DNA of 64,000 nt from Dehalococcoidia bacterium (GCA_025060295.1 JANXCH010000001.1:32896-96895), one strand, 5' to 3'; positions 20,302 to 37,711 are shown, counted from the stretch's first letter. Made by a program: numbers and translations. Notes: generated by a model not told the origin, from the sequence alone.

Positions 20302-20304
20302 GGT

Positions 20305-22418: not shown

Positions 22419-24620
22419 CTAGATGAAGATGGGAGCCATGACCAGGGTGATGGTGCTGAGCAGTTTGACCAGCACATGGAGGGACGGGCCCGCTGTGTCC
22501 TTGAAGGGGTCGCCCACTGTGTCGCCCACTACGGCGGCAGCGTGTACCGGGGTGCCCTTGCCCATTTTCTCGCCCGTGGGGTTGGTCAGGGCACCCGACT
22601 CGATCAGTTTTTTGGCGTTGTCCCAGGCGCCGCCGGCATTGTTCATATAGGTGGCCAGCAGGATGCCCCCGATGGTTCCGATCATCAGGAGGGCGGCCAC
22701 CGCCTCAGCCCGCAGGATGACCCCCACAATAATGGGCACGCCTACCGCCAACAAACCCGGAGCCACCATGCCCCGCTGGCCGGCACGGGTGGTGATGTCC
22801 ACAGCACGGGCGTAGTCGGGGCGGGCCTGACCGGTCATAATTCCCGGGTTGGTGCGGAACTGGCGACGCACCTCCTCAATCACACTGCTAGCGGCCGTCT
22901 GAACAGCGCGGATGGCCCAGGCGCTGAACAGGAACACTAGCATCGCCCCGATCAGCCCTCCCACGAACACCTCGGGCTTCGCCAGGTTAACGGCCTCCAG
23001 GGGAGCGCCCCGCACCTTGGCCACTTCATCCAGGTAGGCGCTGAACAACAGGAAGGCTGCCAGCCCCGCCGAACCCATGGCGTAGCCCTTGGTCAAGGCC
23101 TTCGTCGTGTTGCCCACGGCGTCCAGACGGTCGGTAACACTGCGCACCTTATCCCCGGCCCCTGCCATCTCCACGATGCCGTTGGCGTTATCGGTGATGG
23201 GGCCAAAGGTATCCATCGCCAGCACATAGGCGGCGGTCATGAGCATCCCCATAGTGGCCACGGCAGTGCCGAACAGTCCCCCGTGGGGAATTTCCGAGCC
23301 GTCGGGCAGGCGCAGTTGGTCGCCCATCCAATAGGCCAGTAGGATGGCGACGCCGATAGCCACGGCGGTGGAGAAGGTGGTCTCGAAGCCCACCGAGGTG
23401 CCCGCCACGATGTTGGTGGCCGGCCCTGTGCGGGACGCCTCGGCGATGGACTTGACAGGGCGGTAATAGACCTCGGTGTAGTACTGGGTGATGAACACGA
23501 AGGCCACGCTGGTGGCGATGCCCACCAGCCCCGCCAGGAACAGCCAGATGGGGTTAGCCACCGCATCGCCCATCATGCCCCAGGTGGCAATGGCCAGGAA
23601 CACCACCGACAAACCAATGGAAAGGAAGTAGCCCCGGTTCAGGGCGCGCATGGGGTTCTCGTCCTCCCTGCCCCGCACCGCCAGCACGCCGAGGGCGGTG
23701 GCGATGAGACCGAAGGCGCGAATCACCAGCGGAAATAGCACCCACACCTCGGGGCGGGGCAGGTTGGCACGGGCGGCGGCGGCATAGGCCGCAACGCCGA
23801 GGATCATCGCCCCGATGTTCTCGGCGGCGGTGGACTCAAAGAGGTCGGCACCGCGCCCGGCGCAGTCCCCCACATTGTCTCCCACCAAGTCGGCGATGAC
23901 GGCGGGGTTACGGGGGTCGTCCTCGGGAATCCCCGCCTCTACTTTCCCTACCAGGTCGGCCCCCATATCCGCCGCTTTGGTGTAGATGCCCCCGCCCAAC
24001 TGGGCGAACAGGGCCACGAAACTAGCCCCAAACCCGAAGCCCACGATGAGGAAGGGGGCAATGGGCACCTCGGCGCGATAGACGGGGTCAAAGACCAAGC
24101 GGGAGGAGCCCCCATAGGCATAAAAGATGGCCAGGATACCCAACAGGCTCAGGGCGACGATGAGGAATCCCGACACTGCTCCACCCCGCAGCGCCACGGT
24201 AACAGCCTCCCTCAGTCCGCCACGGGCGGCAGCTGCGGCGGCGCGCACATTGCTCTTCACAGAGATGTACATACCGATGAAGCCCGCCAGGCCCGAGCAG
24301 AAGGCCCCTAACAGGAACGCCACGGCGGTGCGCCAACCCAATCCCAAGGTGTCGGCCAGGTCCACACGGCGGTCGCCGGTGATGTCGGTGCGCCCCAGGA
24401 AGGCCAGGAGCAGACCCATCAGCAAAGCCACCGCCACTGATAAATAGGCGATGGTGCCATATTGACGGCGCAAAAAGGCCATAGCCCCTTCTAAGATGCG
24501 GTTGGCGATGTCCTGCATCTCGGGGGGGCCGGGGTCACGACGCAAGACATCCCGGGCGAGCCAGAAAGCGAAGAGGACGGCTGCTACGCCCGCAATGGGG
24601 ACCAGCCAGAATAAAGCCAT
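22419..24620 (-). CDS. hppA: membrane-bound proton/sodium-translocating pyrophosphatase
   Basis: Multi-TM protein with [45 protein letters not shown] and [20 protein letters not shown] 24620 lies 5 nt after AGGAGG. Confidence 0.93.
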
Positions 24621-24756
24621 GCACGCCTCCTGAGCAGTTGTGGCTGGGCGCTTGTGGCCCGCATCACTAGCAAGATATGATAGCACACCCGCTACGGCCC
24701 CCTCCCGTGCGTGCCCGCGCCCTCCCTATTCCAATCGATGCCCCCAACCTGGCAGA

Positions 24757-24786
24757 TTGACAGAGGGTGAAGGGGTCTGGTATGGT
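24757..24786 (+). promoter_or_regulatory. putative promoter (TTGACA-18-TATGGT) for the nuo operon
   Basis: TTGACA at 24757..24762 and TATGGT at 24781..24786, 52 nt upstream of the nuoA ATG. Confidence 0.45.
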
Positions 24787-24838
24787 GAGGAGTAGCACAC
24801 ACCCCCGCAATGTCCCCCCGGGAGGGTAGGGGTGCTCG

Positions 24839-25207
24839 ATGCCCCAGGCTTATGCCATCAACTACACGGTGGTCGTCCTGGCGGCCATCGTGGGGGCCAT
24901 TGCCATTGGCATCCTGTTCCTCCTCAACGCCCTTTTAGCCCCGCGGCGTGCCTCCCCCCTGAAGGCTGATCCCTTCGAGTGTGGCATCCCCCCTGCCCCC
25001 TTCTCGTGGTCGCAAATCCATATCCGCTACTATGTGTTCGCTATCCTGTTCTTGGTTTTTGATGTGGAGGCGGTGTTCCTGTTCCCCTGGGCTGTAGTGT
25101 TCCTGCAGAGTGCGCCCTTTGTGTTCTATGAGATGCTGGTGTTCATCGCCATCCTTTTGTTCGGTCTGCTGTATGGCTGGCGTAAGGGGGCGTTGCAATG
25201 GCAATAA
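24839..25207 (+). CDS. nuoA: NADH-quinone oxidoreductase subunit A
   Basis: 122 aa with three TM segments, PFECG motif, and FLVFDVE..FLFPWA. Confidence 0.9.
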
Positions 25208-25839
25208 TCGTGCGGCCCAAGCGGAGTGAGCAACCCCAGCCCAATCCGCGCCACCCCTTCCACGCCCAACCGTGGACGCCCGCCTCGGGTATAGAGCGGG
25301 CGGAGCCGGTTCCCGTTGCCAAAGGGAACCTGCACCCGCCTCCTCCGCTCCTTAAAGGTGCACCGGGGGTGGTGCTGGCCCGTTCCGAGGAACTGTTCGC
25401 TTTGGCGCGCAAGAACTCTTTGTGGCCCCTCACCTTCGGCTTGGCCTGTTGCGCCATTGAGATGATCTCCACCTATATGGCCAACCACGACTTTGACCGC
25501 TTTGGTGTGGTCACGTGGCCCTCGCCCCGCCAATCGGATGTGATGATCGTAGCAGGCACGGTGGTCAAGAAGATGGCCGAGCCGATACGGCGTCTTTACG
25601 AGCAGATGCCCGAGCCGAAGTGGGTGATTGCTATGGGCTCCTGCGCCACCAATGGAGGCCCCTACTATCGCTCCTACTCGGTGGTGATGGGGGTGGACCA
25701 CATCATCCCGGTGGATGTGTATGTGCCGGGGTGTCCACCCCGTCCCGAGGCGCTGTTGGACGGTATCCTGCGCCTGCAGGAGAAGATCACCCAGGACGCA
25801 CGCAACCGTGTCCGACGCTCGCCCGACGCCTCCGCCTAG
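25198..25839 (+). CDS. nuoB: NADH-quinone oxidoreductase subunit B (with about 45-aa Pro-rich N-terminal extension if ATG 25198 is used)
   Basis: [26 protein letters not shown] and [10 protein letters not shown] carry the N2 cluster ligands. ATG 25198 overlaps the nuoA stop; an internal GTG near 25369 would give a conventional length. Confidence 0.9.
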
Positions 25840-25909
25840 CCACTCCCCTGGGGCTGGGGGTGGGCATGCCCCCAGTGCCCCCCAGCGCCTGGACGCCCGC
25901 GCCCAGGCC

Positions 25910-26353
25910 TTGCAGGCTATCCTTCCTGAAGTATTGCGCCCCTTCTCCATCGCGTTGTCTGTGGCCTTGGACGAAGTGGTGGCCCTGGTGCCCGCGGAGC
26001 AGGTTGTGGAGGTGTGCCGCTCTCTGCGGGATGACCCCCGCACCCGCATGGACTTTTTGCGCTGTCTGTCGGTGGTGGACTACGGCGACATCCTGGAGGT
26101 GGTCTACCACCTGTGGTCTATGGAGAAGCGCCACAAGATGGTGGTGAAGGTGCGGGTGCCTGCCGATAAGCCCGAGGTGCCCTCGGTTACCGGCGTGTGG
26201 AAGGGGGCCGACTGGTTTGAGCGGGAGGGGCGCGACCTCTACGGGGTGGTGTTCATCGGTCATCCGAACCTGGCTCCCCTGCTCCTGTGGGAGGGCTTCC
26301 CCGGCTTCCCCGGACGGAAGAGTTACCCTTTCTACGACTACAAGGAGTGGTGA
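25910..26353 (+). CDS. nuoC: NADH-quinone oxidoreductase subunit C
   Basis: DFLRCLSVVDY, P.VTGVWKGADWFEREGRDLYGV.F.GHPN and LL. The start is uncertain: there is no in-frame ATG after the nuoB stop, and TTG 25910 was chosen. Confidence 0.8.
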   Translation: MQAILPEVLRPFSIALSVALDEVVALVPAEQVVEVCRSLRDDPRTRMDFLRCLSVVDYGDILEVVYHLWSMEKRHKMVVKVRVPADKPEVPSVTGVWKGADWFEREGRDLYGVVFIGHPNLAPLLLWEGFPGFPGRKSYPFYDYKEW

Positions 26354-26357
26354 GGAT

Positions 26358-27476
26358 ATGGCCGAGGCCCATCCCCTTGAGGTGCGAGAACTCCTGATCA
26401 ATATGGGGCCGCAACATCCGAGCACCCACGGCGTGTTCCGCATGGTGCTGTGGGTGGATGGGGAGCGCATCGTACGGGTGGAGCCCCATATTGGTTACCT
26501 GCATCGGGGGTCGGAGAAGCTGTGCGAAGGGGAGACCTATCTGCAAATCCCCACCCTCTTCGACCGCCTGGATTACCTGTCCAACTTCAATAATGAGCTG
26601 ACCTTCTGCATGGCCGTGGAGAAATTGATGGGCCTGGAGGTGCCCGAGCGGGCGCAGTATGTGCGCATCATTCTGTGCGAACTCAATCGCATCACCAGCC
26701 ACCTGATGTTTTACGCCGCTTTCGGCTTGGATGTGGGGGCCATGACTCCCAGTATGTATGCGTTCCGGGAGCGCGAGCGCGTTCAGCAGGTCTTTGAGGC
26801 GGTATCGGGGGCACGGATGATGCACGACTACTTCCGGGTGGGCGGTCTGCGCCAACCGCCGCCCGACAACTTCCGGCAGAAGGTGCAAGATATCTTGCCC
26901 ATTGTAGAGAAGGGCATTCACGAGTGCGACACCCTGTTGAGCCGTAACGAAATCTTTCTGGCTCGCACCCGCGGCATCGGCATCATCAGCGCCCAAGAGG
27001 CCATCGCTTGGGGGATGACCGGCCCTTGCCTGCGGGCGTGTGGGATCCCTTACGATATCCGCGTGGTGGAGCCGTATTCCCTGTATGACCGCTTTGATTT
27101 TGACATCCCCGTGGGGAGCCGGGGGGATTGCTGGGACCGGTATATGGTGCGGGTGGAGGAGATGCGCCAGTCCTTGCGCATTATCCGTCAGGCCCTGCAG
27201 CAAATGCCCGACGAGGGGCCGGTGCTGGCGCAAGGGGCTCGGCGCCTCCCCCGTCCACCCAAGGGGGAGGTCTATATGCGCACCGAAAACCCCCGGGGCG
27301 AGTTCGGGGTGTATCTTGTCAGCGACGGCTCGGAGCGCCCCTACCGGGTAAAAATCCGCGCCCCATCCTTCGCCAACTTGCAAGCCTTGCCCGTTTTGAT
27401 GCGGGATTGCTATGTGGCCGATGCCGTGGTGATATTGGGGTCGTTGGATATTGTGTTAGGCGATGTGGACCGTTGA
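26358..27476 (+). CDS. nuoD: NADH-quinone oxidoreductase subunit D
   Basis: LINMGPQHPSTHGVFR, EPHIGYLHRG.EK, and the C-terminal IRAPSFANLQALP...DIVLGDVDR. Confidence 0.93.
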   Translation: MAEAHPLEVRELLINMGPQHPSTHGVFRMVLWVDGERIVRVEPHIGYLHRGSEKLCEGETYLQIPTLFDRLDYLSNFNNELTFCMAVEKLMGLEVPERAQYVRIILCELNRITSHLMFYAAFGLDVGAMTPSMYAFRERERVQQVFEAVSGARMMHDYFRVGGLRQPPPDNFRQKVQDILPIVEKGIHECDTLLSRNEIFLARTRGIGIISAQEAIAWGMTGPCLRACGIPYDIRVVEPYSLYDRFDFDIPVGSRGDCWDRYMVRVEEMRQSLRIIRQALQQMPDEGPVLAQGARRLPRPPKGEVYMRTENPRGEFGVYLVSDGSERPYRVKIRAPSFANLQALPVLMRDCYVADAVVILGSLDIVLGDVDR

Positions 27477-27489
27477 AGCGAGGGGGAGT

Positions 27490-28749
27490 ATGCCTGAGCT
27501 GGCTGTTCTTGCATTCGTGGCGGGGGTAGTTGTGGCGCTGGGGATGAGCGCCTGGCTGGCCGTCTCCCTGGTGCCGGTGGTGGGTGCCGATTGGGCGTGG
27601 GGGGTGGGGATAGGGGTGGCAGCCCTGGTGGGGGTGGGGGTTATCCTTATCCTTGCTTTGGTGGGCTTGGGCTGGCCGGCGTTGGCCTATATTGGTGGGT
27701 TATTGGCTTTAGTAACCTTCCTCTCCCTGGTAACCTTCGCCCAGGTGTGGCTGGAACGCAAGTACCTCGGGCGGCTGCAGCAAAGGCTCGGCCCGACGCG
27801 TGTGGGCCCCTTCGGCTTGCTCCAACCCGTTGCCGATGCCGTCAAACTCCTCCTCAAGGAGGACATCCTCCCCTCTTGGGCTGATAAGGTAGTCTATTGG
27901 ACTGCGCCCCTGATCGCTTTCGTGCCCGCCTTCATGGTTTGGGTAACCATCCCCTTCAGCCCTACCCTTGTCCTGCGCAATCTGGACTTGGGGTTGCTCT
28001 ACGTCATTGCCTTCTCAGTGCTGGGCATAACGGGGTTATTGGTAGCGGGTTGGGGGTCTGCCAATAAATATGGTGTGCTGGGGAGCCTACGCTCGGCCGC
28101 CCAACTAATCAGCTACGAAATCCCTATCGTGGTGGTGGCTTTGACGGTGGCCATGCTGGCGGGCTCGCTGAACTTGGTGGAGATAGTGGAGAGGCAGAGT
28201 CCTATCTACGCCCTGGTGCAACCGTTGGGTCTGGTGCTGTTCCTGTTGGCAGGCCTGGCCGAGGTGGGGCGCACGCCTTTTGATATTTATCACGCCGAGT
28301 CGGAGATTGTGGGGGGGCCCTTTGTGGAATACAGCGGTGCCCACTGGGCTGCGTTCTACCTGGCAGAGTATGTGAACACCTTCCTTGTGGGGGCTATGAC
28401 CACCCTGCTCTTCCTCGGTGGGTGGAAGGGGCCTGTGCTTCCGCCGGTGGTCTGGTTCCTCCTGAAGACCTTTGCGGTGGTGCTGGTGATGTTTTGGTTC
28501 CGGGGCACCTTTCCGCGTTTGCGCATTGACCAGCTGATGGCTTTGGGGTGGCAGGTGCTGGTGCCCCTCAGTTTCCTGACCATGGTGCTGACGGGCGCGG
28601 CGTTGTACTGGGGCTGGCCGTGGTGGGTGCTATCCCTGGTATCCCTGGCGATGATGGGGGGTGTGGGGTGGGCTTGGCACTGGCAGGTCCACCGGCACCG
28701 CCCGTCCATCCGTCTTGTGCCCGCGCGGGAGGTGCGCCGTGCTATCTAG
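27490..28749 (+). CDS. nuoH: NADH-quinone oxidoreductase subunit H (about 65-aa N-terminal extension)
   Basis: WLERKYLGRLQQRLGPTRVGPFGLLQP and GLAEVGRTPFD..E.ESE.V.G. The ERK motif starts about 95 aa from ATG 27490, after two extra hydrophobic segments. Confidence 0.9.
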   Translation: MPELAVLAFVAGVVVALGMSAWLAVSLVPVVGADWAWGVGIGVAALVGVGVILILALVGLGWPALAYIGGLLALVTFLSLVTFAQVWLERKYLGRLQQRLGPTRVGPFGLLQPVADAVKLLLKEDILPSWADKVVYWTAPLIAFVPAFMVWVTIPFSPTLVLRNLDLGLLYVIAFSVLGITGLLVAGWGSANKYGVLGSLRSAAQLISYEIPIVVVALTVAMLAGSLNLVEIVERQSPIYALVQPLGLVLFLLAGLAEVGRTPFDIYHAESEIVGGPFVEYSGAHWAAFYLAEYVNTFLVGAMTTLLFLGGWKGPVLPPVVWFLLKTFAVVLVMFWFRGTFPRLRIDQLMALGWQVLVPLSFLTMVLTGAALYWGWPWWVLSLVSLAMMGGVGWAWHWQVHRHRPSIRLVPAREVRRAI

Positions 28750-29266
28750 TTTGAAAGGTCTGTGGCTCACGCTGCGCACTACTTTTCGGCGTCCTGTCAC
28801 AGCTCAGTACCCTAAGGAGCACCTCCCTATCCAGCCCCGCTATATGGGCTTTCCCGCCCTTACTTGGGATGAGAAGGTGGGGGAGCCCTATTGCACGGCG
28901 TGCATGGTCTGTGTCCGCATGTGTCCCACACAATGTATGAAGGCGACCATGAAGGACAATCCCCTCTACAAAGAGGGGAAAAGCCCCCGTCGCAAGATTG
29001 TGGACACTTTTGAGATCAACCTCAATCGGTGCATCCTGTGTGGGATTTGCGTGGAGGTATGCAACTTTGACGCCATAGTGATGAGTTACGAGCACGAGTT
29101 GAGCACCTACCAGCGCAACGGGCGGCGGGTGAACCTGCAGCAATTGCTGGAGATGGGGAAGCGCTACCAGGCTCTGACGGGGTGGCGTCCGGAGTCGGAA
29201 CTGAAGGCGGAACAGGAGAAGGGGCGTTTGCCTGCCTCCTCCTCCGCATCGGCACCGGAGCGATAG
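28739..29266 (+). CDS. nuoI: NADH-quinone oxidoreductase subunit I
   Basis: Two 4Fe-4S motifs, CTACMVCVRMCP and CILCGICVEVCN. GTG 28739 overlaps the nuoH stop. Confidence 0.9.
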   Translation: MLSSLKGLWLTLRTTFRRPVTAQYPKEHLPIQPRYMGFPALTWDEKVGEPYCTACMVCVRMCPTQCMKATMKDNPLYKEGKSPRRKIVDTFEINLNRCILCGICVEVCNFDAIVMSYEHELSTYQRNGRRVNLQQLLEMGKRYQALTGWRPESELKAEQEKGRLPASSSASAPER

Positions 29267-29271
29267 AAGCC

Positions 29272-29772
29272 GTGAGCATCCCGCTCCTTGCCCTGGCCCT
29301 ATTGGCGGCGGTGGTGCTGGGAGGCGGGATAGGCGTGGTGGTGGCGCGCAATGTGGTGCACGCCGCTCTCTTTCTTCTGCTGACCTTGGCGGGTGTGGCG
29401 GGGGTGTTTGTGCTCTTGTTGGCCGAGTTCCTGGCCCTGGTGCAGGTGCTCATTTACGGGGGGGCGGTGGTCATCGTTCTGGTGTTTGCTCTGATGCTCA
29501 CCCGCGCCCAGGACTTCGCCGGCGTCCAAGACAACCCCCAGTGGGCCCTCGGGTTGATGGCGGCCATAGCGGTGCTGGGGGTGCTGACAACGGCTTTTGT
29601 GGCCTGGAGGCCTCCTACCCAACCGCTGGAGCGCGTGGGGTTTGAGGCGTTGGGGCGGGAACTGTTCCTGCGGTGGGCTATCCCCTTTGAGATCATTTCC
29701 CTGGTGCTTCTGTTAGCCCTGATCGGGGCCATGCTCATCGCCCGCGAGCGCAACGGCGGGGGGCGCCGATGA
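29272..29772 (+). CDS. nuoJ: NADH-quinone oxidoreductase subunit J
   Basis: ARNVVHAALFLLLTL.GVAG.F.LL.AEFLA.VQVLIYGGAV.I...F..M is typical of NuoJ. The GTG 29272 start lies just after the nuoI stop. Confidence 0.88.
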   Translation: MSIPLLALALLAAVVLGGGIGVVVARNVVHAALFLLLTLAGVAGVFVLLLAEFLALVQVLIYGGAVVIVLVFALMLTRAQDFAGVQDNPQWALGLMAAIAVLGVLTTAFVAWRPPTQPLERVGFEALGRELFLRWAIPFEIISLVLLLALIGAMLIARERNGGGRR

Positions 29773-30074
29773 ACCTGCTCCACCTGGAACTGCTGAGCGC
29801 AGCGCTTTTTGTCATTGGCCTGTATGGGGTGTTGGCCCGGCGCAACGCCGTGATGGTGCTGATGGCCATTGAACTGATGCTTAACGCTGTCAACATCAAC
29901 TTGGTGGCCTATGCGCTGTTCTTAGACCCGTCCCGCGTGGTGGGGCAGGTGTTGACGGTGTTTGTCATCACGCTGGCGGCGGCCGAGGTGGGTTTGGCAT
30001 TGGCCATCATTTTGCGGATTTACCGCAACCGCGGCACAGCCAACCTGGATGAGATCAACTTGATGAAGTGGTAG
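29769..30074 (+). CDS. nuoK: NADH-quinone oxidoreductase subunit K
   Basis: 101 aa with three TM segments, and MAIELMLNAVNINLVA with AAAEVGLALAII. Its ATGA overlaps nuoJ. Confidence 0.92.
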   Translation: MNLLHLELLSAALFVIGLYGVLARRNAVMVLMAIELMLNAVNINLVAYALFLDPSRVVGQVLTVFVITLAAAEVGLALAIILRIYRNRGTANLDEINLMKW

Positions 30075-30076
30075 GT

Positions 30077-30481
30077 ATGGCTCAAAGGGCGATGGACTGG
30101 TTCCGCCAGGCGCAGCGGGACTTGGAGCACGCTGAGGAGTCCCGTCGGCTGGGCCGGCACGAGTGGGCGTGCTTCGCTGCTCATCAGGCGGCCGAGAAGG
30201 CGGTGAAGGCTTTGCATTTAGCCCTGGGACAGGAGGCGTGGGGGCATGTGATCGCACGGCTTTTGAGCCAGTTGCCCAGCACGGTGCCCGTCCCGTCGGA
30301 CCTGGTGGATAAGGCGCATGTGTTAGACGCGTTCTACATCTCCCCCCGGTATCCCAACGCCTATAGCGAAGGTGCACCCTTTGAGCACTTTGGGCCTCTG
30401 CAGAGTGAGGAGGCGGTGCGCTATGCCCGTGAGACCCTTGAGTTCGTCCGTGCTCGTTTGGCCCAAGCGGCAGGAGGTTGA
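30077..30481 (+). CDS. HEPN-domain protein (putative toxin partner of a HEPN/MNT pair)
   Basis: The four-helix pattern W...A..DL..AE......H.WACF.AHQAAEKAVKALHL...........H.I..L......YISPRYPN.......F....A..A...A is typical of small HEPN proteins paired with minimal nucleotidyltransferases. ATG 30077 lies 2 nt after the nuoK stop; GTG 30068 is an alternative start. Confidence 0.75.
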   Translation: MAQRAMDWFRQAQRDLEHAEESRRLGRHEWACFAAHQAAEKAVKALHLALGQEAWGHVIARLLSQLPSTVPVPSDLVDKAHVLDAFYISPRYPNAYSEGAPFEHFGPLQSEEAVRYARETLEFVRARLAQAAGG

Positions 30482-30794
30482 CCGCGCGGTGCGCGTATGG
30501 GCGCATAGGGTGGCCCAACAGCGTTCCGATGTGCTGCGTATCGGGTATTTCGGCTCTTATGCCCGAGGGGATTGGGGTGTGGGCAGCGACCTGGACGTGG
30601 TGGTCGTGGTGGAGAGCACCACCATACCCCCGGAGCGCCGGGCAGCCGAATGGGATACCACCTCCCTGCCCGTGCCTGCCGATGTGGTGGTTCTGACACG
30701 GGAGGAGTGGGACGCCCTGCAGGGGCGGGGGGGGCGGTTCGCCCAAACCCTTGCACAGGAGACGGTCTGGGTGTATCAGAGGGGGGTGTGGTGA
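30423..30794 (+). CDS. minimal nucleotidyltransferase (MNT) domain protein (putative antitoxin partner)
   Basis: The GS-x10-DxD signature reads GSYARGDWGVGSDLDVVVVV. The protein is small (about 115-123 aa) and overlaps the HEPN ORF by 32-59 nt, depending on whether the start is ATG 30423 or GTG 30450. Confidence 0.75.
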   Translation: MPVRPLSSSVLVWPKRQEVDRAVRVWAHRVAQQRSDVLRIGYFGSYARGDWGVGSDLDVVVVVESTTIPPERRAAEWDTTSLPVPADVVVLTREEWDALQGRGGRFAQTLAQETVWVYQRGVW

Positions 30795-30830
30795 AGACCT
30801 GGGAGGGGGGGCTGCACCGAGGGGACTGGA

Positions 30831-30852
30831 GGGGCCGGGGGTTCTCGGCCCC
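30831..30852 (+). other. perfect 7-bp GC hairpin in the MNT-nuoL spacer
   Basis: GGGGCCG (30831..30837) and CGGCCCC (30846..30852) with an 8-nt loop, followed by a U-poor tail TTCCGTTG. It could be a weak terminator or an RNA processing/stability element. Confidence 0.4.
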
Positions 30853-30891
30853 TTCCGTTGAAACAGCGTGCCTATGCAGGAGGGTTAGTGT

Positions 30892-32751
30892 ATGCAGTGG
30901 GCTTGGCTTGCACCAGCCCTAAGCGCTATCGCCTTCCTGGTCATTGTCCTTTTTCGTCGTCTACTGCCCCGTGAGGGCGCGTGGCTGGCACCCTTGGCCA
31001 TCGCGGGCGGGTTTGGGGTGTTTTGGGTGGTGCTGGGGGATTGGGTGGGGGCGGGTGGTGGCCTCCACACCTTCGGTGTACCTTGGCTGGAGGCGGGGGA
31101 TATCCGCATCAGTTGGGGGATGATGGTAGACCCCCTTTCCCTAGTGCTGATGGGGCTGGTTACCTTCGTGGCCCTGCTGGTGCAGGTGTATTCCTGGGCA
31201 TATATGGCCCACGAGCCTCGCTTCGGATGGTATTTCGCCGCCCACGCCCTGTTCGCCGCCTCCATGCTAGCCCTGGTGTTGGCCGACAGTTTTCTGCTCC
31301 TCTACATTGCCTGGGAACTGGTGGGCTTGTGCTCCTACCTGCTCATAGGCTTCTGGTATGAGAGGCGGCCGGCGGCTGAGGCGGCGAAGAAGGCTTTCAT
31401 CACCACCCGTATAGGGGATGTGGGGATGTTGGTGGGCATCCTGCTCCTTTTCCAGCAGACGGGAACTTTTGACATGCCGACCATTTTGGCCCTGGTGGAG
31501 CAGGGCGGTCTGTCGTCGGGAGTGGTTACCTCGGCGGCGCTGTTGCTGTTCATGGGTGCGATGGGCAAGTCGGCGCAGTTCCCCTTGCATGTGTGGCTCC
31601 CCGATGCCATGGAAGGCCCTACCCCTGTGAGCGCTCTTATTCACGCCGCCACGATGGTGGCGGCAGGGGTGTATCTCGTGGCGCGGGTGTTTCCTCTCTT
31701 TGAGGCTTCGGGGTTAGCGCTACTTGTGGTAGCCATCATCGCCATCATCACAGCGCTGATGGCGGGTAGCATGGCCCTGGTGATGACCGATTTGAAGCGG
31801 GTACTGGCTTATTCCACCATCACCGACCTGGCGCTCATGATGCTTGCTCTGGGAGCGGGGAGCGTCACGGCGGCCATCTTCCACTTGGTGGTGCACGGTT
31901 TGAGCAAGGCCTTGTTGTTCCTGGGGGCAGGGTCGGTGAGCCACGCCACGGGGAAAACGGACATCCGGGATATGGGCGGTTTGGCTCGCCAGATGCCTCT
32001 CACGGCGTTCACCTTCGCCCTGGGGGCTTTTTCCCTGGGGGGGATTCCGCCCTTGGCCGGGTGGTTCAGCAAGGATGAGGTGTTGGTGGCTGTGGGGAAT
32101 GGACGGGGTGCCCTGTGGCTGGGATTGGCGTTTGTGGTTTCTTTGCTTAAGGCCCTGTATATGGGGCGTCTGGTGTGGATGGTCTTTTTCGGCAAGCGCA
32201 AGGTTGCCCATGTGCACGAATCGCCCCTGCTTATGACCCTGCCTCTGGTGATGTTGGGGGTCGGGGCTTTGGGGGCGGGTATCCTCCTTCTGCCGTTGGG
32301 GGATGTGTTTGGCGGATTTGGCACCTTCCTCTACACGCACAAGCCCGAGAAGTTCCACTTTGTCCCCGGGATCGCTTTGCCGTCCGCGCTGGTGGCGCTG
32401 GCGGGATTCGGATTCACCTGGATGGCCTACCATGCAGGGCGCATACCTGTGGACGCTTTGCGGGAGCGTTGGGCGGGGGTGCATCGCCTCCTAGTGCGCA
32501 AGTTTTTCCTGGATGACCTTTACCAATGGGGTGTGAACAGTATCGTGCTGGGGATGGGGCAGGCTATCGCTGTGTTTGACCGGGTGGTGGTCAACGATGC
32601 GGGGGTCAATGGCACTGGGGTGTCGGTGCTCTTGACGGGGCGGGCGCTGCGCTGGCATGTCACGGGGTTTGTGTATACCTATGCCCTGGGGATGGTGCTG
32701 GGGTTTTTGGTGGTGGCGGTGGTGTGGTGGACGGTTCTGGCACGCCTGTAG
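30892..32751 (+). CDS. nuoL: NADH-quinone oxidoreductase subunit L
   Basis: 619-aa antiporter-like subunit with WELVGLCSYLLIGFW, KSAQFPLHVWLPDAMEGPTPVSALIHAATMV, and a C-terminal lateral-helix region. ATG lies 7 nt after AGGAGGG. Confidence 0.93.
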   Translation: MQWAWLAPALSAIAFLVIVLFRRLLPREGAWLAPLAIAGGFGVFWVVLGDWVGAGGGLHTFGVPWLEAGDIRISWGMMVDPLSLVLMGLVTFVALLVQVYSWAYMAHEPRFGWYFAAHALFAASMLALVLADSFLLLYIAWELVGLCSYLLIGFWYERRPAAEAAKKAFITTRIGDVGMLVGILLLFQQTGTFDMPTILALVEQGGLSSGVVTSAALLLFMGAMGKSAQFPLHVWLPDAMEGPTPVSALIHAATMVAAGVYLVARVFPLFEASGLALLVVAIIAIITALMAGSMALVMTDLKRVLAYSTITDLALMMLALGAGSVTAAIFHLVVHGLSKALLFLGAGSVSHATGKTDIRDMGGLARQMPLTAFTFALGAFSLGGIPPLAGWFSKDEVLVAVGNGRGALWLGLAFVVSLLKALYMGRLVWMVFFGKRKVAHVHESPLLMTLPLVMLGVGALGAGILLLPLGDVFGGFGTFLYTHKPEKFHFVPGIALPSALVALAGFGFTWMAYHAGRIPVDALRERWAGVHRLLVRKFFLDDLYQWGVNSIVLGMGQAIAVFDRVVVNDAGVNGTGVSVLLTGRALRWHVTGFVYTYALGMVLGFLVVAVVWWTVLARL

Positions 32752-32763
32752 GGGGGTGGTCCG

Positions 32764-34260
32764 ATGGACTGGCTGCGCGAGAACATTTTGCTGTTGGTCG
32801 TGCTGGTGCCCTTTGGGGGGGCATTGGCATTGGCCCTGATACCCAATGAGCGGGTGGGGGTGGTGCACTGGGGGGCGCGTTGTTTGGCGACAGTCGGGTT
32901 GGTGCTGGCGGGTCTGGCCTTCATCCTCTACGACCGGGGGCAAGGGGGGTTCCAAATGGAGCGCCAGTTCCCTTGGCTTCCGTCGTTGGGTGCTTCGTTC
33001 CATGTGGGAGTGGACGGCATCGGGGTTGCGCTCATTCTTTTGAACGGCATCGTGATGTTCACGGGAACGCTGGTGTCGTGGAACATTCGGAACCGCCCCA
33101 AGGACTTTTTCGTGCTTTTCTTCCTTCTGGGGACGGGGGTATATGGCGTGTTTGCCTCTTTAGACCTGTTTTTCCTGTTCTTCTTTTACGAATTGGCCGT
33201 TCTGCCCATGTTTTTGCTTATTGGGGTGTGGGGATCCAGCACCGACTTTGGCACCTTCATTCGGACCAAGGAATACGGCGCGCTGAAGTTGACTTTATAT
33301 CTGGTGGCGGGGAGCATCCTGGTGTGGGTGGGGTTGTTGGGGCTGTGGGTGGAGGCGGGGCGCACCTCCTTTGACCTGGTGGTTCTCCAAGAGGTGTCCT
33401 TCGCCCGCACCTTCCAGCTGGTCTTTTACCCGATGCTGATGGTGGGCTTTGGGGTGCTGGCGGGACTGTGGCCGTTCCACACCTGGTCGCCTGACGGGCA
33501 TGTGGCCGCTCCTACGGCGGTGAGTATGCTTCACGCCGGGGTGCTGATGAAACTAGGGGCGTTCGGCATCCTGCAAGTGGGGATGCGCCTCTTGCCCGAG
33601 GGAGCACAGGCATGGGCACCTGTGCTGATTGCGCTGGGGACGGTGAACGTGCTCTATGGGGCGGTGAGTGCTTTGGCTCAACAAGACTTGAAGTATGTGG
33701 TGGGCTACTCGAGTGTGAGCCATATGGGATATGTGCTGATGGGGTTGGCCACCCTGGACCCGCTGGGCATCAATGGAGCCGTGCTGCAGATGTTTTCTCA
33801 CGGGATTATGACGGCCCTGTTCTTTGCCTTGGTGGGGGTGATTTACGACAGGGCCCATATACGGGATATCGGGGTGTTGGAGGGGTTAGCGAAGCGCATG
33901 GGAACCACAGCGAGTTTCTTCGCCGTGGCGGGATTGACCTCTCTGGGGCTCCCGGGGCTCAGTGGGTTTGTGGCTGAGTTGCTGGTGTTTCTCGGAGCGT
34001 TTCGCACCTACCCCGCGTTGGCGGTGTTAGGGGTGATCGGGGCGGCGGTAACGGCGGTGTATATCTTGCGCCTGTTGGGCAAGGTGTTTTTCGGTCCTCT
34101 GGGTGAGCGATGGAGGGACTTGCCCGACGCCAGCCCCCTTGAGGTGGGGGCCACGGCCCTGTTGGTGGCGGTGCTGGTGATCGTGGGGCTTGCTCCCTTT
34201 ACCCTTCTGGACACCATAGATGTGGGGGTTACAGAAGTGCTCCAGCGAGTGTTCGGCTAG
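32764..34260 (+). CDS. nuoM: NADH-quinone oxidoreductase subunit M
   Basis: FFYELAVLPMFLLIG.WG, FHTWSPDGHVAAPTAVSMLHAGVLMKLG and YSSVSHMGY. Confidence 0.93.
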   Translation: MDWLRENILLLVVLVPFGGALALALIPNERVGVVHWGARCLATVGLVLAGLAFILYDRGQGGFQMERQFPWLPSLGASFHVGVDGIGVALILLNGIVMFTGTLVSWNIRNRPKDFFVLFFLLGTGVYGVFASLDLFFLFFFYELAVLPMFLLIGVWGSSTDFGTFIRTKEYGALKLTLYLVAGSILVWVGLLGLWVEAGRTSFDLVVLQEVSFARTFQLVFYPMLMVGFGVLAGLWPFHTWSPDGHVAAPTAVSMLHAGVLMKLGAFGILQVGMRLLPEGAQAWAPVLIALGTVNVLYGAVSALAQQDLKYVVGYSSVSHMGYVLMGLATLDPLGINGAVLQMFSHGIMTALFFALVGVIYDRAHIRDIGVLEGLAKRMGTTASFFAVAGLTSLGLPGLSGFVAELLVFLGAFRTYPALAVLGVIGAAVTAVYILRLLGKVFFGPLGERWRDLPDASPLEVGATALLVAVLVIVGLAPFTLLDTIDVGVTEVLQRVFG

Positions 34261-34269
34261 GGGGGTCGC

Positions 34270-35706
34270 ATGCCTAGCGTGAACTGGAGCCTGCTGTGGC
34301 CGGAAGGTTTGGCTACCGCTTTGGCCTTTGTCATCTTTCTGGTGGATCTCTTTTTGCCTCCAGCACGCAAGCGGGCATTGCCGTGGCTGACGGCTTTGGG
34401 TCTCGGGGGTGTGCTGGCCTTCACGCTGGTGTTCCTGTGGGGGCGGCAGGAGACCCTGTTTGACGGGCTATACCGTGTGGATGCGTATGCACTGCTGTTC
34501 AAGGTGGTTTTCCTGGGGGTGGGGCTTCTGGTGGCGTTAGCCTCGATGGAATATGTGCAGAAGTACTTGGAACATCCGGGGGAATATTACGCCATTTTGG
34601 TGTTGGCGGTGGTGGGGATGATGGGCATGGCCTCGGCGGGGGAGTTACTCACGGGCATCATCGCTTTGGAGCTAGAAAGTTTTGCTCTGTATGTGCTGGT
34701 GGCGTATGCGCGAGGGGACGCCAAGTCCAACGAGGCGGCTATGAAGTTTATCCTGTTGGGTGCGTTCGCCTCGGCCCTGATGCTGTATGGAGTAAGTCTG
34801 GTGTATGGAGCCGTAGGGACGACCTTTTTTGCCGAGATGGCCCAACGCCTGCCCCAGGTGGAGCAGACGCCTGTGCTGGCTCTGGGGTTGGGGCTGGTGC
34901 TGGTGGGGTTCGGGTTCAAACTGGCGGCCGTGCCTTTCCATATGTGGGCTCCCGATGTTTATGAGGGGGCCCCTCTGCCCGTAACGGCCTTTATTGCGGT
35001 GGCCTCCAAGGCGGCGGTGGTGGCGCTTCTCTTACGGTTTCTGGCGGAGGGGGTGCTGCCCACCCAGGGGCAATGGGAGTGGGTTTTGGCAATCCTTGCG
35101 GCCCTGACCATGACGCTGGGGAACCTGGTAGCCCTGGCGCAACGCAATCTTAAGCGTCTGCTGGCCTATTCCAGTATCGGTCAGGTGGGTTACCTGTTGG
35201 CGGGGCTGACCGCGCTGTCTCCGATGGCATCCACGGGGGTGGTGTATCACCTGATCGGATATGCGGTTACCAATTTGGCGGCTTTTGGGGCCCTTATCTT
35301 CTTCTACAATCGCACGCAAGGGGATGATATCGCCTCCCTGGCGGGTGCGGCCCAGCGGGAGCCGTTCGTCGCGATGGCGATGGCGGTGGCGTTGTTCTCT
35401 CTGGCTGGATTGCCATTCTTTGTGGGTTTCTCCAGCAAGTTCTACCTGTTTACGGCAGCGGCCCAGGGGGGCTGGCTGTGGCTGGCGGCATTGGGAGTGG
35501 TGAACAGTGTAATCTCCCTCTACTACTATTTGGTGATTATTCGGCAGATGTATATCGAGCGTCCCCGAGAGGAGGGGCGTTTCTCGCTGTCGCCCCTCTG
35601 GGGAGCCACTTTAAGCCTCCTCGTGGCGGGTATCTGTGTCCTGGGGGTGTATCCGGGGCCGCTGGTGCGAGTAGTGGAGATGGCCACTCAAGCCATTTTG
35701 CCCTAG
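34270..35706 (+). CDS. nuoN: NADH-quinone oxidoreductase subunit N
   Basis: ALELESFALYVLVA, FKLAAVPFHMWAPDVYEGAP.PVTAF and LLAYSSIGQVGY. Confidence 0.93.
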   Translation: MPSVNWSLLWPEGLATALAFVIFLVDLFLPPARKRALPWLTALGLGGVLAFTLVFLWGRQETLFDGLYRVDAYALLFKVVFLGVGLLVALASMEYVQKYLEHPGEYYAILVLAVVGMMGMASAGELLTGIIALELESFALYVLVAYARGDAKSNEAAMKFILLGAFASALMLYGVSLVYGAVGTTFFAEMAQRLPQVEQTPVLALGLGLVLVGFGFKLAAVPFHMWAPDVYEGAPLPVTAFIAVASKAAVVALLLRFLAEGVLPTQGQWEWVLAILAALTMTLGNLVALAQRNLKRLLAYSSIGQVGYLLAGLTALSPMASTGVVYHLIGYAVTNLAAFGALIFFYNRTQGDDIASLAGAAQREPFVAMAMAVALFSLAGLPFFVGFSSKFYLFTAAAQGGWLWLAALGVVNSVISLYYYLVIIRQMYIERPREEGRFSLSPLWGATLSLLVAGICVLGVYPGPLVRVVEMATQAILP

Positions 35707-35719
35707 CAAGGAAGGGTGT

Positions 35720-35755
35720 GTGCGCGGGCCAGCACAGATTTCGTGGCCGGCGCAC
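35720..35755 (+). terminator. 12-bp stem-loop after nuoN (candidate operon terminator, no U-tract)
   Basis: GTGCGCGGGCCA (35720..35731) pairs with TGGCCGGCGCAC (35744..35755) with one central G-G mismatch and a 12-nt loop, 14 nt after the nuoN stop. Confidence 0.4.
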
Positions 35756-35819
35756 CATGAGACGATTTTCGTCAACATTTCGTTTCCTGCGATTGCACAA
35801 GATTATGCTTGTAAGGCCC

Positions 35820-35848
35820 TTGACAAAATGAAAGGTAGTATGTATGGT
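35820..35848 (+). promoter_or_regulatory. putative promoter (TTGACA-17-TATGGT, with TG extension) for the ABC transporter genes
   Basis: TTGACA at 35820..35825 and tgTATGGT at 35841..35848, 78 nt upstream of the ATG at 35927. Confidence 0.45.
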
Positions 35849-35926
35849 CTTGGCGAGGGGTCGCCCTTCCTTATCCCGTCTCACGGGGGCTGTGGCCCTC
35901 TCACACACTCGGCGTAAGGAGGAAGC

Positions 35927-37711
35927 ATGGCGGTGGGACGGCTCTGTGCATTCGGGTTAGTAATGGTTTTGCTGGGTTTTGCCACAGCCTGTCGAGCGGC
36001 GCCGGCGCCGACGGGCCCTACCCCCACCCCAACCTCTGTGGTCCGCCCTGCCCCCCAGCCCACGCCCACGCCCTTCCCCACTCCCACACCTTTGCCCCTT
36101 GCCACTCCTGGCGCGGGCGTCCTCCCCACGCCCACACCTATCCCTACGCCCACCCCTGGGGTGGAGGGCAAATACGGGGGCATCCTCATTTGGGCGCAGG
36201 AGCGGGATGTGGTGTCAGCCGAGATCTCCATGTATGAGGGCCTCAGTTACTTGAGCCAGCACCCCACACGCCCCCTGTATAGCCAGATCGTCATGAACGA
36301 CCCTCAAGACGCTTATAAGGTCATCCCTGACTTGGCGGAGCGCTGGGAGATGCGCCCGGACGGGATGCAGTGGACTTTCTACCTGCGGCGCAATGCGGTG
36401 TGGCACGACGGCAAGCCCGTGACCGCCCACGATGTGAAGTTCACCTTTGACCGCATGTTCAACCCGCCCCCCGGCCAGGTGCGGGGACGCGCCGCACCCG
36501 TCCTTGACTATATGGACGGCCCCGCTTCCGTGGTGGTGAAGGACGACTACACCGTCCAGTTCAATTTAAAGTTTCCGGCTGCCTCCTTCCTTGCTCTGAT
36601 GAACAATCCCTACCTGGTAGTGATGCCCAAGCACTATGTGGAGGCTCGCCCGGACAAGCAGGTGCGGGTGTGGAAGGATGTCATCGGGAGTGGGGCGTTC
36701 CGAGTGAAAAGCATGACCCCCGGCTCGTCCTATGAGATGGTGAAGTTTGACAAGTTCTACATTCCGGGACGGCCGTATCTGGATGGCATGCGTGTGCTGG
36801 TGATGCCAGACCCGGCGACCCGTTTCGCAGCCCTGCGGGCGCGTCGTCTGCACATCATCCCCCAGAGCGTTACCTATGCCCAGGCCGAGGTCATCGCCAA
36901 GGAGATGCCCCACATCGTCCTCCAGCGGGTGCCCCGCATCGCCGGCGATACCATTCAGTTGAATGTCAAACAACCGCCTTTCACCGACCCGCGTGTGCGG
37001 AGGGCGGTGTCCTTGGCTTTGCCGCGTGCGTGTCTGAAGGACGGGCCGTGCTATGCTGTGGAGCCTGATGGCTACATGGGTGGGGTGCTGTTCCCCTATG
37101 GCCCCTGGGCATTGCGCCCGGAGGATTTGGCCGACAAAGTGCCCGGCTATGCCTCTACGGTGGCGGGCAAGGAGCGGGAGCGGCAGGAGGCGCGCCGCCT
37201 TCTGGCAGAGGCCGGATTCCCCAACGGGTTCAAGATCGTTATGGACACCCGCGAGCTGCGCTCATACATTGACTGCGCCCAGTGGGCCATTGAAGAACTG
37301 CGCAAGGTGGGTATAGAAGTTACCGACCTGAAGATTCACGACTCTGCCTCTTACTACGAACTAACCCTGGAGGGACGGCATAAGATCATCGCCCACGGGC
37401 ACGCCTTTGCCCTGGACGACCCCGACCTGGTCATTCCCGACCACTACCTGTGTGGTGGGGCGGAGAACCACCCCAAGTTGTGCATGAAGGAGATTGAGGA
37501 TCTCTTTGCCAAGCAACAGCGCACCCTGGATGTGGGCGAGCGCATCCGCCTCCTGAAGGACCTCCAGCGCCTCATTCTGGACCAGGACGCCAAAATTTGG
37601 ATCGCTTGGGAGGTGTCGCGCGTGCCCCACTGGCCTGAGGTGAAGGGCTGGTATGCCGTCAACAGCCTTTATATGAGCCAGCACTTCTGGGATGTGTGGC
37701 TCGAGCGGTAG
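35927..37711 (+). CDS. ABC transporter substrate-binding lipoprotein, peptide/nickel (family 5) type
   Basis: Signal plus lipobox LLGFATAC, a long Pro/Thr linker, then a family-5 SBP core (WHDGKPVTAHDVKFTF, GSGAFR). Confidence 0.85.
   Translation: MAVGRLCAFGLVMVLLGFATACRAAPAPTGPTPTPTSVVRPAPQPTPTPFPTPTPLPLATPGAGVLPTPTPIPTPTPGVEGKYGGILIWAQERDVVSAEISMYEGLSYLSQHPTRPLYSQIVMNDPQDAYKVIPDLAERWEMRPDGMQWTFYLRRNAVWHDGKPVTAHDVKFTFDRMFNPPPGQVRGRAAPVLDYMDGPASVVVKDDYTVQFNLKFPAASFLALMNNPYLVVMPKHYVEARPDKQVRVWKDVIGSGAFRVKSMTPGSSYEMVKFDKFYIPGRPYLDGMRVLVMPDPATRFAALRARRLHIIPQSVTYAQAEVIAKEMPHIVLQRVPRIAGDTIQLNVKQPPFTDPRVRRAVSLALPRACLKDGPCYAVEPDGYMGGVLFPYGPWALRPEDLADKVPGYASTVAGKERERQEARRLLAEAGFPNGFKIVMDTRELRSYIDCAQWAIEELRKVGIEVTDLKIHDSASYYELTLEGRHKIIAHGHAFALDDPDLVIPDHYLCGGAENHPKLCMKEIEDLFAKQQRTLDVGERIRLLKDLQRLILDQDAKIWIAWEVSRVPHWPEVKGWYAVNSLYMSQHFWDVWLER

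Follow-up and report, generated by a model that had tools for sequence, protein, structure and literature searches.

How does a pair of small genes of toxin–antitoxin or defence type come to reside in the middle of an operon for respiratory complex I, and to what extent does it take part in respiration there? The question is posed by the 64,000-nucleotide window analysed here, one strand of a Dehalococcoidia bacterium assembly (GCA_025060295.1 JANXCH010000001.1:32896-96895), in which nuoK and nuoL lie 817 nt apart and the gap holds two overlapping open reading frames (ORFs) on the same strand. An original prediction, made from the sequence alone, regarded the two ORFs as a HEPN gene and a minimal nucleotidyltransferase (MNT) gene, labelled them type VII toxin–antitoxin-like, and proposed that they could couple RNA targeting to respiratory gene expression. 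Judged by its profile matches, the pair is indeed a HEPN/MNT module of the toxin–antitoxin and defence type, and specifically a Class II module (PF05168 with PF01909), a known kind of module. It is probably a mobile cassette that has become a long-term passenger in a permissive nuoK–nuoL junction, with a HEPN that is probably attenuated. Its placement is a new instance of a known cassette behaviour and not a new kind of system, and the idea that it newly ties RNA targeting to the regulation of respiration is unsupported on present evidence. The genes concerned are the following.

24839-35706, plus strand: complex I operon of 11 genes, nuoA-B-C-D-H-I-J-K-(insert)-L-M-N, recognised from ORFs, Pfam matches and gene calls on the identical or orthologous contigs L001, L002 and L175.
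29769-30074, plus strand: nuoK, 101 aa, intact, ending in NLMKW with the stop codon TAG at 30072-30074; matches the full profile PF00420 (E=1e-28).
30077-30481, plus strand: HEPN gene, 134 aa, with ATG 30077 placed 2 nt after the nuoK stop and TGA at 30479-30481.
30423-30794, plus strand: MNT gene, 123 aa from ATG 30423, in a different frame from the HEPN gene, with TGA at 30792-30794.
30892-32751, plus strand: nuoL, 619 aa, intact and full length; matches PF00662 and PF00361.

The description of the locus on which the prediction was built, in its coordinates, ORFs and motifs, was borne out throughout on recheck. The nuoA to nuoK genes overlap or nearly abut, in the window as in the gene calls on L001, L002 and L175, and the operon is split by a same-strand pair. 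The G+C content of the insert is indistinguishable from that of the flanking nuo genes and therefore carries no signal of recent transfer, and no paralogous copy of either gene is present elsewhere in the window.

The identity of the first gene is secured by profile and structural matches alike. The HEPN protein matches PF05168 far above the cut-off (E=2.1e-30, 105.7 bits against 22), with residues 6-125 covering positions 2-115 of the 117 in the profile, and it aligns essentially full length with three solved structures, namely, TT1696/1UFB (E=9e-36), TM0613/1O3U (E=3e-24), and 1WOL (E=4e-21), through which its four-helix fold was assigned by sequence homology. It is about 50% identical to Thermus TT1696 (PDB 1UFB). 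PF05168 is its sole Pfam match; neither DUF86 (PF01934) nor PF08780 is matched, nor is any NCBIfam HEPN/HepT model. The corresponding NCBI entries from Dehalococcoidia metagenome-assembled genomes (MAGs), MCS7206387.1/MDW8119099.1, are named "HEPN domain-containing protein" and annotate the 134-aa form; an alternative in-frame ATG at 30092 would give 129 aa, the length of nearly all homologs. Homologs number more than 5,600, the best 120 of which are 69-82% identical, with named sources in several phyla including NC10, Acidobacteria, Limnochordaceae, and Chloroflexi.

The second gene is equally clear in its assignment. The MNT protein matches NTP_transf_2, PF01909 (E=6.8e-10; 39.7 bits, with the cut-off at 21), and carries an intact GS-x10-DxD signature, GSYARGDWGVGSDLD, at 30552-30596 (G44-S45-x10-D56-L-D58), as the prediction had claimed; its residues are invariant in an alignment of 45 sequences and conserved in 73. 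An AlphaFold (AF2) model (pLDDT 87.7, pTM 0.80), with helices at residues 93-113, finds as its best Foldseek matches 2RFF (TM 0.61/0.67), the MNT antitoxins 8XEO/7BXO, ANT(4'), 1NO5, 1WOT, and HI0073, and the model and these matches together place the protein in the polymerase-beta-type alpha/beta fold of the minimal nucleotidyltransferases. The overlap with the HEPN gene, first given as 32-59 nt, is 59 nt (30423-30481) with ATG 30423 and 32 nt with GTG 30450. NCBI annotates a protein of 101 aa, 82% of the 123-aa form, under MCS7206388.1/MDW8119100.1 ("nucleotidyltransferase domain-containing protein", Dehalococcoidia MAGs). Sequence conservation indicates that this annotated start lies too far downstream, the conserved MPVRSL N-terminus and the Shine-Dalgarno sequence before it both pointing to ATG 30423.

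Modules of the Class II HEPN/MNT kind were catalogued by Yao et al. 2020, with functional assays for Class I only (PMC7641770). The window pair shows what defines the class: a PF05168 HEPN adjoining a PF01909 MNT, with RX4HXY absent from the former and GSX10DXD kept in the latter. With other Class II members (COG2250 and COG1708; structures 1UFB, 1O3U, and 1WOL) it shares the Pfam families, the adjacency of small genes, the GSx10DxD motif, the absence of RX4HXY, and a thermophile-rich, patchy distribution that includes plasmids, without essential difference. Its counterpart in the scheme of Makarova et al. 2009 (PMC2701414) is "HEPN_T", the COG2250 subfamily associated with thermophiles. The narrower subfamily of the window pair departs from the general Class II description in its fixed HEPN-first order, an overlap of 41-59 nt, and an internal Shine-Dalgarno sequence; moreover, most of its members carry an Rx4H motif (RYPN[SG]H) that the general description gives as absent, and in place of its His the window copy has Tyr.

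The type VII label did not survive this comparison. The type VII HepT/MntA systems (Shewanella SO_3166/SO_3165; Aphanizomenon HEPN/MNT) are likewise composed of a small HEPN gene and a GSx10DxD MNT gene, the window MNT fold resembles that of MntA (7BXO, 7AE9), and the likely shared logic, by analogy, would be neutralisation of HEPN by MNT. However, HepT/MntA belongs to Class I, with a DUF86 (PF01934) HEPN that bears RX4HXY and with mntA upstream, whereas the window pair has a PF05168 HEPN without that motif and with the HEPN gene upstream; the MntA equivalog model NF047752 scores only 21.2 bits (cut-off 60) against the window MNT, over residues 49-88. Toxicity and AMPylation have been characterised in HepT/MntA and never shown for Class II.

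A second point of comparison is the Legionella pneumophila pair lpg2920/lpg2921 (PMC11586414), in which the HEPN gene is again first, the MNT gene second, and the two overlap, by 8 bp there. Among the fold matches of the window MNT, the structure of the Legionella MNT (8XEO) ranks second, but it is without a C-terminal helix, in contrast to the helices at 93-113 of the window model. The Legionella HEPN carries RX4HXY (Class I) and has no detectable sequence similarity to the window HEPN even at E<=10. Its R98A and H103A mutants retain RNase activity, a helix-2 Mg2+ site being catalytic (PMC11586414). A transfer of these Mg2+-site residues to the window protein was attempted and abandoned: there is no alignable similarity, and the helix-2 Q37-x-x-E40 of the window HEPN cannot be equated with Q44/E47.

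The most conspicuous departure of the window HEPN from its family lies at the position that would be catalytic.

30347-30364, plus strand: canonical HEPN active-site position at the helix-3/helix-4 junction, reading RYPNAY (R91-Y-P-N-A-Y96); subfamily consensus RYPN[SG]H (Rx4H).

That the Rx4-6H motif is missing from its expected place had been noted from the outset and holds: RYPNAYSE contains neither RX4H nor HXY. The N-terminal RRLGRH string offered as fitting the spacing is not a displaced copy of the motif: GRHE is an invariant feature of the subfamily at another position. TT1696 reads RYPDAH at the canonical site. Among the best 120 HEPN homologs the His column holds H in 97, F in 13, and Y in 10, and among 94 loci the counts are 72, 13, and 9, respectively; the F and Y variants recur in contexts unrelated to nuo. 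All nuo-embedded copies (the window and L001, and L002-L007) have Tyr in the His96 column and retain R91. As the nearest relatives outside nuo operons (P0003, P0004, P0006, and P0012) carry His there, the simplest placing of the change is within the lineage embedded in nuo, or in the immediate donor of that lineage. Other His residues that are invariant among HEPN homologs (H28, H57, and H104) are all present in the window copy, and alternative His residues have been noted in PF05168 proteins by Anantharaman et al. (PMC3710099). As regards the conserved tyrosine of Class II that could accept a nucleotide, Y87 and Y92 are kept, and the 90%-conserved Y105 is Phe. The lineage departs from consensus at further sites conserved to at least 90%, with P89S and Y105F in HEPN and Y91L and S5P in MNT, and the invariant family residues are otherwise all retained in the pair. 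The nuo-lineage HEPNs rank third and fourth most divergent among the 120, and the divergence of the MNT is ordinary.

The architecture and distribution of the cassette elsewhere bear most directly on whether its position in the nuo operon is meaningful. With the window HEPN as query, 80 metagenomic loci were retrieved, and in every one of them HEPN precedes MNT with an overlap of about 41-56 nt; contigs L011-L014 and the plasmid pTSC8 show the same overlapping arrangement. Thus, the gene order that the original prediction had treated as unusual is invariant in the subfamily, which corrects the widespread view that MNT invariably comes before HEPN, stated in the literature as almost always (PMC3710099). 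In nearly all loci the tblastn alignments of MNT begin at residue 1 (the ATG 30423 codon), and the MPVRSL N-terminus together with a GAGGAGG-like Shine-Dalgarno sequence 9 nt upstream is conserved across the subfamily.

The neighbours, in contrast to the order, are diverse: an AsnS/AspS-type tRNA synthetase, an R3H/AAA protein, a phosphodiesterase, a patatin, argC, a MoxR ATPase. Not one of the 80 contains a nuo gene. According to a crude ORF heuristic, about 80% of loci have a co-directional gene upstream of the cassette, in many cases within 12-60 nt of it, and co-directional genes lie close on both sides in about 6 of 43 other distinct contexts, the neighbours identified by Pfam being an R3H-AAA gene and tmk, an ABC-2 permease and an ABC ATPase, Fe-S and NAD-binding oxidoreductase subunits, and a glycosyltransferase and rmlD. 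Two of these add to the examples in which a multi-subunit operon is split by the cassette: L103:749-3296, between the ABC-2 permease and ABC ATPase genes, and L131:2736-5565, between the genes for an Fe-S subunit and an NAD-binding/Fe-S subunit. In five other loci (L097, L099, L101, L113, and L116) the cassette follows an AAA/PTPase/R3H-domain gene of 520-530 aa by 17-22 nt, with the thymidylate kinase gene coming immediately after it in L097 and L099. These five R3H-gene-linked copies are all His-less, reading RYPNSF in four and RDPNSY in L116. A link between His loss and tight embedding behind a co-directional gene was considered and set aside as a suggestive trend (about 8 of 13 against about 11 of 40 loci), from which no claim is made, the loci not being independent (several share the R3H-AAA and tmk context) and the ORF calling heuristic.

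Plasmids gave 34 hits, every one in a thermophile. On pTSC8 of Thermus scotoductus (8.4 kb, NC_014975.1; L178:3986-4694) a 68%-identical HEPN gene is followed by an overlapping nucleotidyltransferase gene, and the neighbouring gene upstream is divergent from the pair, which must therefore have a promoter of its own in that context. Carriage by phages was sought in 50,697 phage records and returned no hit. Homologs in multiple phyla at 70-80% identity, plasmid copies, and diverse neighbours together support mobility, as read from the sequences. Placement within a housekeeping operon is likewise a known behaviour of these cassettes, given the mid-operon loci above and the MNT-HEPN module already described by Makarova et al. 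inside the lysine operon of Thermus thermophilus HB8 (PMC2701414). A functional coupling to respiration, as first proposed, finds no footing in a cassette that occurs in dozens of unrelated contexts, mid-operon ones included, and that lies in a nuo operon in none of the 80 sampled. The insertions reported in 2009 (PMC2701414) also place a HEPN/MNT cassette inside a housekeeping cluster, and in a close relative the syntenic site is without it. They are recent polymorphisms at the strain or species level, however, whereas the nuo insertion is older (dS ~1) and present in two diverged lineages; furthermore, it sits in the operon of a respiratory complex whose downstream genes depend on read-through, unlike the earlier cases.

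Comparison of the nuoK–nuoL junction among relatives shows the insert to be lineage-specific. A second population, represented by Logan contigs L002-L007, has the identical arrangement and junctions; its L004 orthologs are 95% (nuoK), 80% (nuoL), 82% (HEPN), and 70% (MNT) identical to those of the window. A third lineage, L175 (nuoK 89% and nuoL 76% identical), has the same 11-gene nuo operon without the insert, its nuoK and nuoL being 4 nt apart. L175-L177, supplied by a protein search, are closer relatives than those among the matches listed in the contig scan. Between the window and L004, the two inserted genes have a dS of 0.84-1.35, as against 1.1-1.3 for nuoJ, nuoK, nuoL, and nuoM. The dN/dS of HEPN is 0.13, or 0.09 when the overlap is left out, and that of MNT is 0.21, or 0.17 without the overlap, compared to 0.13, 0.02, 0.11, and 0.07 for nuoJ, nuoK, nuoL, and nuoM. 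With a dS close to that of the nuo genes and dN/dS between 0.09 and 0.21, these rates argue that the pair has co-diverged with the operon under purifying selection and that its genes are not pseudogenes; together with the profile matches, they place the two ORFs far beyond chance. The contrary idea of a functionless, decaying remnant or of spurious ORFs, to which the abundance of long but spurious ORFs on either strand of the G+C-rich window and the lost canonical His lend some colour, is effectively refuted by the strong profile and PDB matches, by frames intact in two lineages at such a distance, and by the retention of the invariant family residues apart from the replacements listed.

Two minor features of the junctions deserve mention. 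The empty site in L175 (L175:5862-5871, JGI 3300058332) has TAA as the nuoK stop and GTG as the nuoL start. The five-codon N-terminal extension of the window HEPN, ATGGCTCAAAGGGCGATGG (30075-30095), loosely resembles the start of L175 nuoL, GTGGAGTGGGCGTGG (L175:5866-5886), and might be what is left of the 5' end that nuoL originally had, although the stretch is very short. A target-site duplication at the nuoK end and nuoL Shine-Dalgarno junctions (TAG-GT-ATG against TAG-TGT-ATG) was rejected: 708 of 5,000 shuffles reached the window score, and the same alignment in L003 gave no signal.

How the pair might be expressed from this position can be read in part from its signals.

24757-24786, plus strand: sigma-70-like promoter match, TTGACA-18-TATGGT, 52 nt before nuoA and the sole one upstream of the operon.
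30407-30413, plus strand: internal Shine-Dalgarno sequence GAGGAGG, within the 3' end of the HEPN gene, 9 nt before MNT ATG 30423; conserved in the subfamily.
30878-30884, plus strand: nuoL Shine-Dalgarno sequence AGGAGGG, 7 nt before ATG 30892; conserved in L003 and L004.

A motif scan of 24000-37000 gave two promoter-like matches, upstream of nuoA and downstream of nuoN, and no promoter-like or terminator-like site at 29807-31423, with the proviso that a consensus scan cannot prove absence. Only short gaps flank the pair, 2-17 nt before HEPN and 97 nt before nuoL. As no internal promoter or terminator motif is seen, the gaps are short, and nuoL, nuoM, and nuoN are needed for complex I, the most economical reading is a single nuoA–N transcript that would include the pair. 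The co-transcription asserted in the original prediction thus stands as regards the common strand and the want of signals of its own, and we infer the shared transcript itself. The internal Shine-Dalgarno region is 100% identical between the window and L003/L004.

Taken together, these observations suggest the following course of events. The cassette would have landed in the nuoK–nuoL junction of an ancestor of a Dehalococcoidia-affiliated Chloroflexota lineage and been carried since. Having no promoter of its own, the pair would be transcribed on the nuoA–N mRNA from the promoter upstream of nuoA, and transcription of nuoLMN would pass through it. Translation of HEPN would begin by re-initiation once ribosomes have passed the nuoK stop by 2-17 nt; MNT would be translationally coupled to HEPN through the 59-nt overlap and the internal Shine-Dalgarno sequence, fixing the ratio of the two proteins; and nuoL translation would be served by its own strong Shine-Dalgarno sequence. 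By analogy with assayed pairs, MNT may bind a HEPN dimer, nucleotidylate it through GSx10DxD, and keep a potentially RNA-targeting HEPN inert. The module would be kept by addiction-like or stress- and defence-related selection and not on account of complex I. The replacement of His by Tyr in Rx4H predicts an attenuated or altered HEPN activity, and an attenuated HEPN would make constitutive co-expression with a housekeeping operon tolerable.

Several considerations weigh against this account of a mobile passenger. Its mechanistic core rests on analogy, as toxicity or neutralisation by nucleotidylation has been shown for no Class II pair, Class I alone having been assayed (PMC7641770). Both the 70-80% identity across phyla and the toxin-first order are unusual for toxin–antitoxin pairs. 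The loss of His need not mean that the HEPN is inactive, if the Legionella protein is a guide (PMC11586414). Purifying selection like that on nuoJ and nuoL over a dS of ~1 exceeds what a neutral passenger needs and is compatible with a role beneficial to the host. An unconventional internal promoter may serve the pair, or partial termination or processing may occur at a hairpin downstream of it (30830-30853). Finally, the three lineages (window, L004, and L175) are about equidistant, so that the junctions may reflect gain in the common ancestor of the window and L004 as well as precise loss in L175. L175 is also without the hairpin-bearing spacer of ~100 nt seen in more distant relatives, and deletion of spacer and cassette together is possible.

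Of the other explanations, the one that survives best, unlikely though we consider it, is that the pair is not a toxin–antitoxin module at all but a two-subunit nucleotidyltransferase, with MNT as the catalytic subunit and HEPN binding nucleotide or substrate in the manner of the C-terminal domain of KNTase. The substrate would be either a macromolecule, protein or RNA, or a small molecule, for instance an antibiotic; the role, a mobile stress response; and the nuo site, incidental. This possibility was explicitly left open by Makarova et al. 2009 (PMC2701414). It would account for conservation of 70-80% across phyla, unlike that of fast-evolving toxins, for the HEPN-first order, and for the dispensability of the canonical His in the 19-23% of members with F or Y. 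The nearest eukaryotic relative of the HEPN by sequence, the sacsin HEPN domain (3O10), also speaks for it, as do the weak sequence and fold matches of MNT to the ANT(4') aminoglycoside nucleotidyltransferases. In KNTase (1KNY) and ANT(4')-II (4EBJ), an N-terminal polymerase-beta-type nucleotidyltransferase domain is joined to a C-terminal HEPN-like four-helix domain. However, these enzymes are single-chain fusions of ~250 aa, the window MNT scores 15-17 bits against a family cut-off of 350, its fold matches the antitoxins 8XEO/7BXO equally well, and an antibiotic substrate role for the pair is without evidence. About 80% of close homologs, moreover, keep the Rx4H motif (RYPN[SG]H), which favours RNase ancestry and function, and carriage on a small plasmid with a patchy distribution fits addiction or defence.

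An abortive-infection or antiviral module, in which infection by a phage would set HEPN free (as might happen when transcription or translation in the host is shut off and MNT is depleted) and the operon merely provides constitutive expression, appears improbable. Among defence effectors HEPN RNases are common (PMC3710099), the cassette is mobile and patchily distributed, and MNT weakly matches the PADLOC-DB v2 single-gene candidate PDC-S09 (27 bits, E ~1e-6) and PDC-M05A. Against this, the HEPN has no PADLOC-DB v2 match, and the two components thus do not both match models of one anti-phage system; the phage records yielded nothing; the neighbours are housekeeping genes and not defence islands; and the catalytic His is lost in the window lineage.

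Domestication of the pair by its host to act on complex I expression, tuning the ratio of nuoA–K to nuoL-M-N, strikes us as very improbable. HEPN might bind or cleave nuo mRNA near the K–L junction or the hairpin, or MNT might attach a tag to a protein or transcript. That two lineages have retained the pair over a dS of ~1, with dN/dS like that of nuoJ and nuoL, can be cited in its favour, as can the lineage-specific replacements at well-conserved sites, the exchange of the 81%-conserved His96 for Tyr, the high divergence rank of the nuo-lineage HEPNs, and the conserved hairpin stem directly downstream. Yet the same cassette occupies many unrelated loci and plasmids and lies in a nuo operon in none of the 80 relatives sampled, F and Y replace His outside nuo contexts as well, L175 runs the same operon with neither pair nor spacer, MNT shows no unusual divergence, and addiction alone would suffice to explain retention. 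Its most specific form, in which a His-less, RNA-binding, non-toxic HEPN and MNT were co-opted as a post-transcriptional regulator on nuo mRNA, is harder still to credit. Were it true, action at the K–L junction or hairpin would set the ratio of nuoA–K to nuoL-M-N, and a toxin–antitoxin-type module would have been domesticated inside the very operon it regulates.

The locus offers a clean and datable case of a selfish or mobile two-gene module living in an essential respiratory operon that it leaves unbroken. Filled and empty sites in sister lineages constitute a natural experiment on the tolerance of operons to insertions, in which a fresh Shine-Dalgarno sequence before nuoL, a retained hairpin, and translational coupling would be the features that confer tolerance. 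The natural His-to-Tyr variant should be useful for probing the function of Class II HEPN proteins, a class abundant in archaea and thermophiles.

The junction into which the cassette inserted has characteristics of its own, beginning with the spacer that separates MNT from nuoL.

30795-30891, plus strand: spacer between MNT and nuoL, 97 nt, with a predicted minimum free energy of -46.7 kcal/mol (z=-2.2).
30830-30853, plus strand: G+C-rich hairpin AGGGGCCG-GGGGTTCT-CGGCCCCT, a perfect 8-bp stem including one A-T pair, of which the 7-bp G+C part spans 30831-30852.

The length of the spacer, its 7-bp G+C hairpin, and its AGGAGGG agree with the first description. The spacer has no Rfam match and no terminator-like site, and no T-run follows the stem at 30830-30853; we do not take the hairpin for an intrinsic terminator. 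It has no second copy in the window, and its stem is conserved in the sister insert-bearing lineage, where the flanking spacer has diverged. Two interpretations were discarded: it is not part of the cassette, since a perfect G+C-rich hairpin lies downstream in just 8 of 69 other loci and none is similar, nor is it a REP-like repeat, being present in a single copy in the window without an Rfam match. It is more likely local spacer sequence, possibly an element that stabilises or attenuates the mRNA.

In 79 genomes the median length of the K–L gap is ~10 nt, and most gaps are <=30 nt. Long gaps occur mainly in Dehalococcoidia relatives, at 73-130 nt, ~500 nt, and ~1.6 kb. Unrelated G+C-rich hairpins are found in the 73-130-nt spacers of L016, L019, L020, L176:1939-2068, and L177:4885-5000, and hairpin-bearing K–L spacers may mark a conserved point of processing or attenuation between the nuoA–K and nuoL–N halves. 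In the Dehalococcoidia MAG DAOUAM010000094.1 (L015:6503-6976) the spacer measures 474 nt between ORF ends, or 498 nt as estimated by tblastn, with no convincing ORF and extensive predicted secondary structure. In another, OZ241923.1 (L017:5389-6991), the junction holds a different, low-G+C insert of 1.6 kb (1603 nt) with same-strand ORFs of 117 and 257 aa, the longer with a sub-threshold match to DUF4417 and the shorter without a Pfam match. To judge from these sequences, the K–L junction in the clade is a loose, hairpin-bearing spacer that is permissive and has repeatedly accepted foreign DNA.

The wider surroundings of the operon complete the picture. No nuoE, nuoF, or nuoG lies in the operon between nuoD and nuoH, and a Pfam check of ten further large ORFs in the window revealed no N-module gene. 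Just upstream of nuoA and divergent from it is a gene for a membrane H+-translocating pyrophosphatase (22419-24686, minus strand; PF03030, E=2e-248), so that a single intergenic control region, 24687-24838, is common to two ion pumps. Beyond the pyrophosphatase gene, farther upstream, lie a D-glutamate cyclase gene (21519-22340) and genes of the xanthine-dehydrogenase/CO-dehydrogenase type, encoding the molybdopterin large and FAD-binding subunits (17968-21174).

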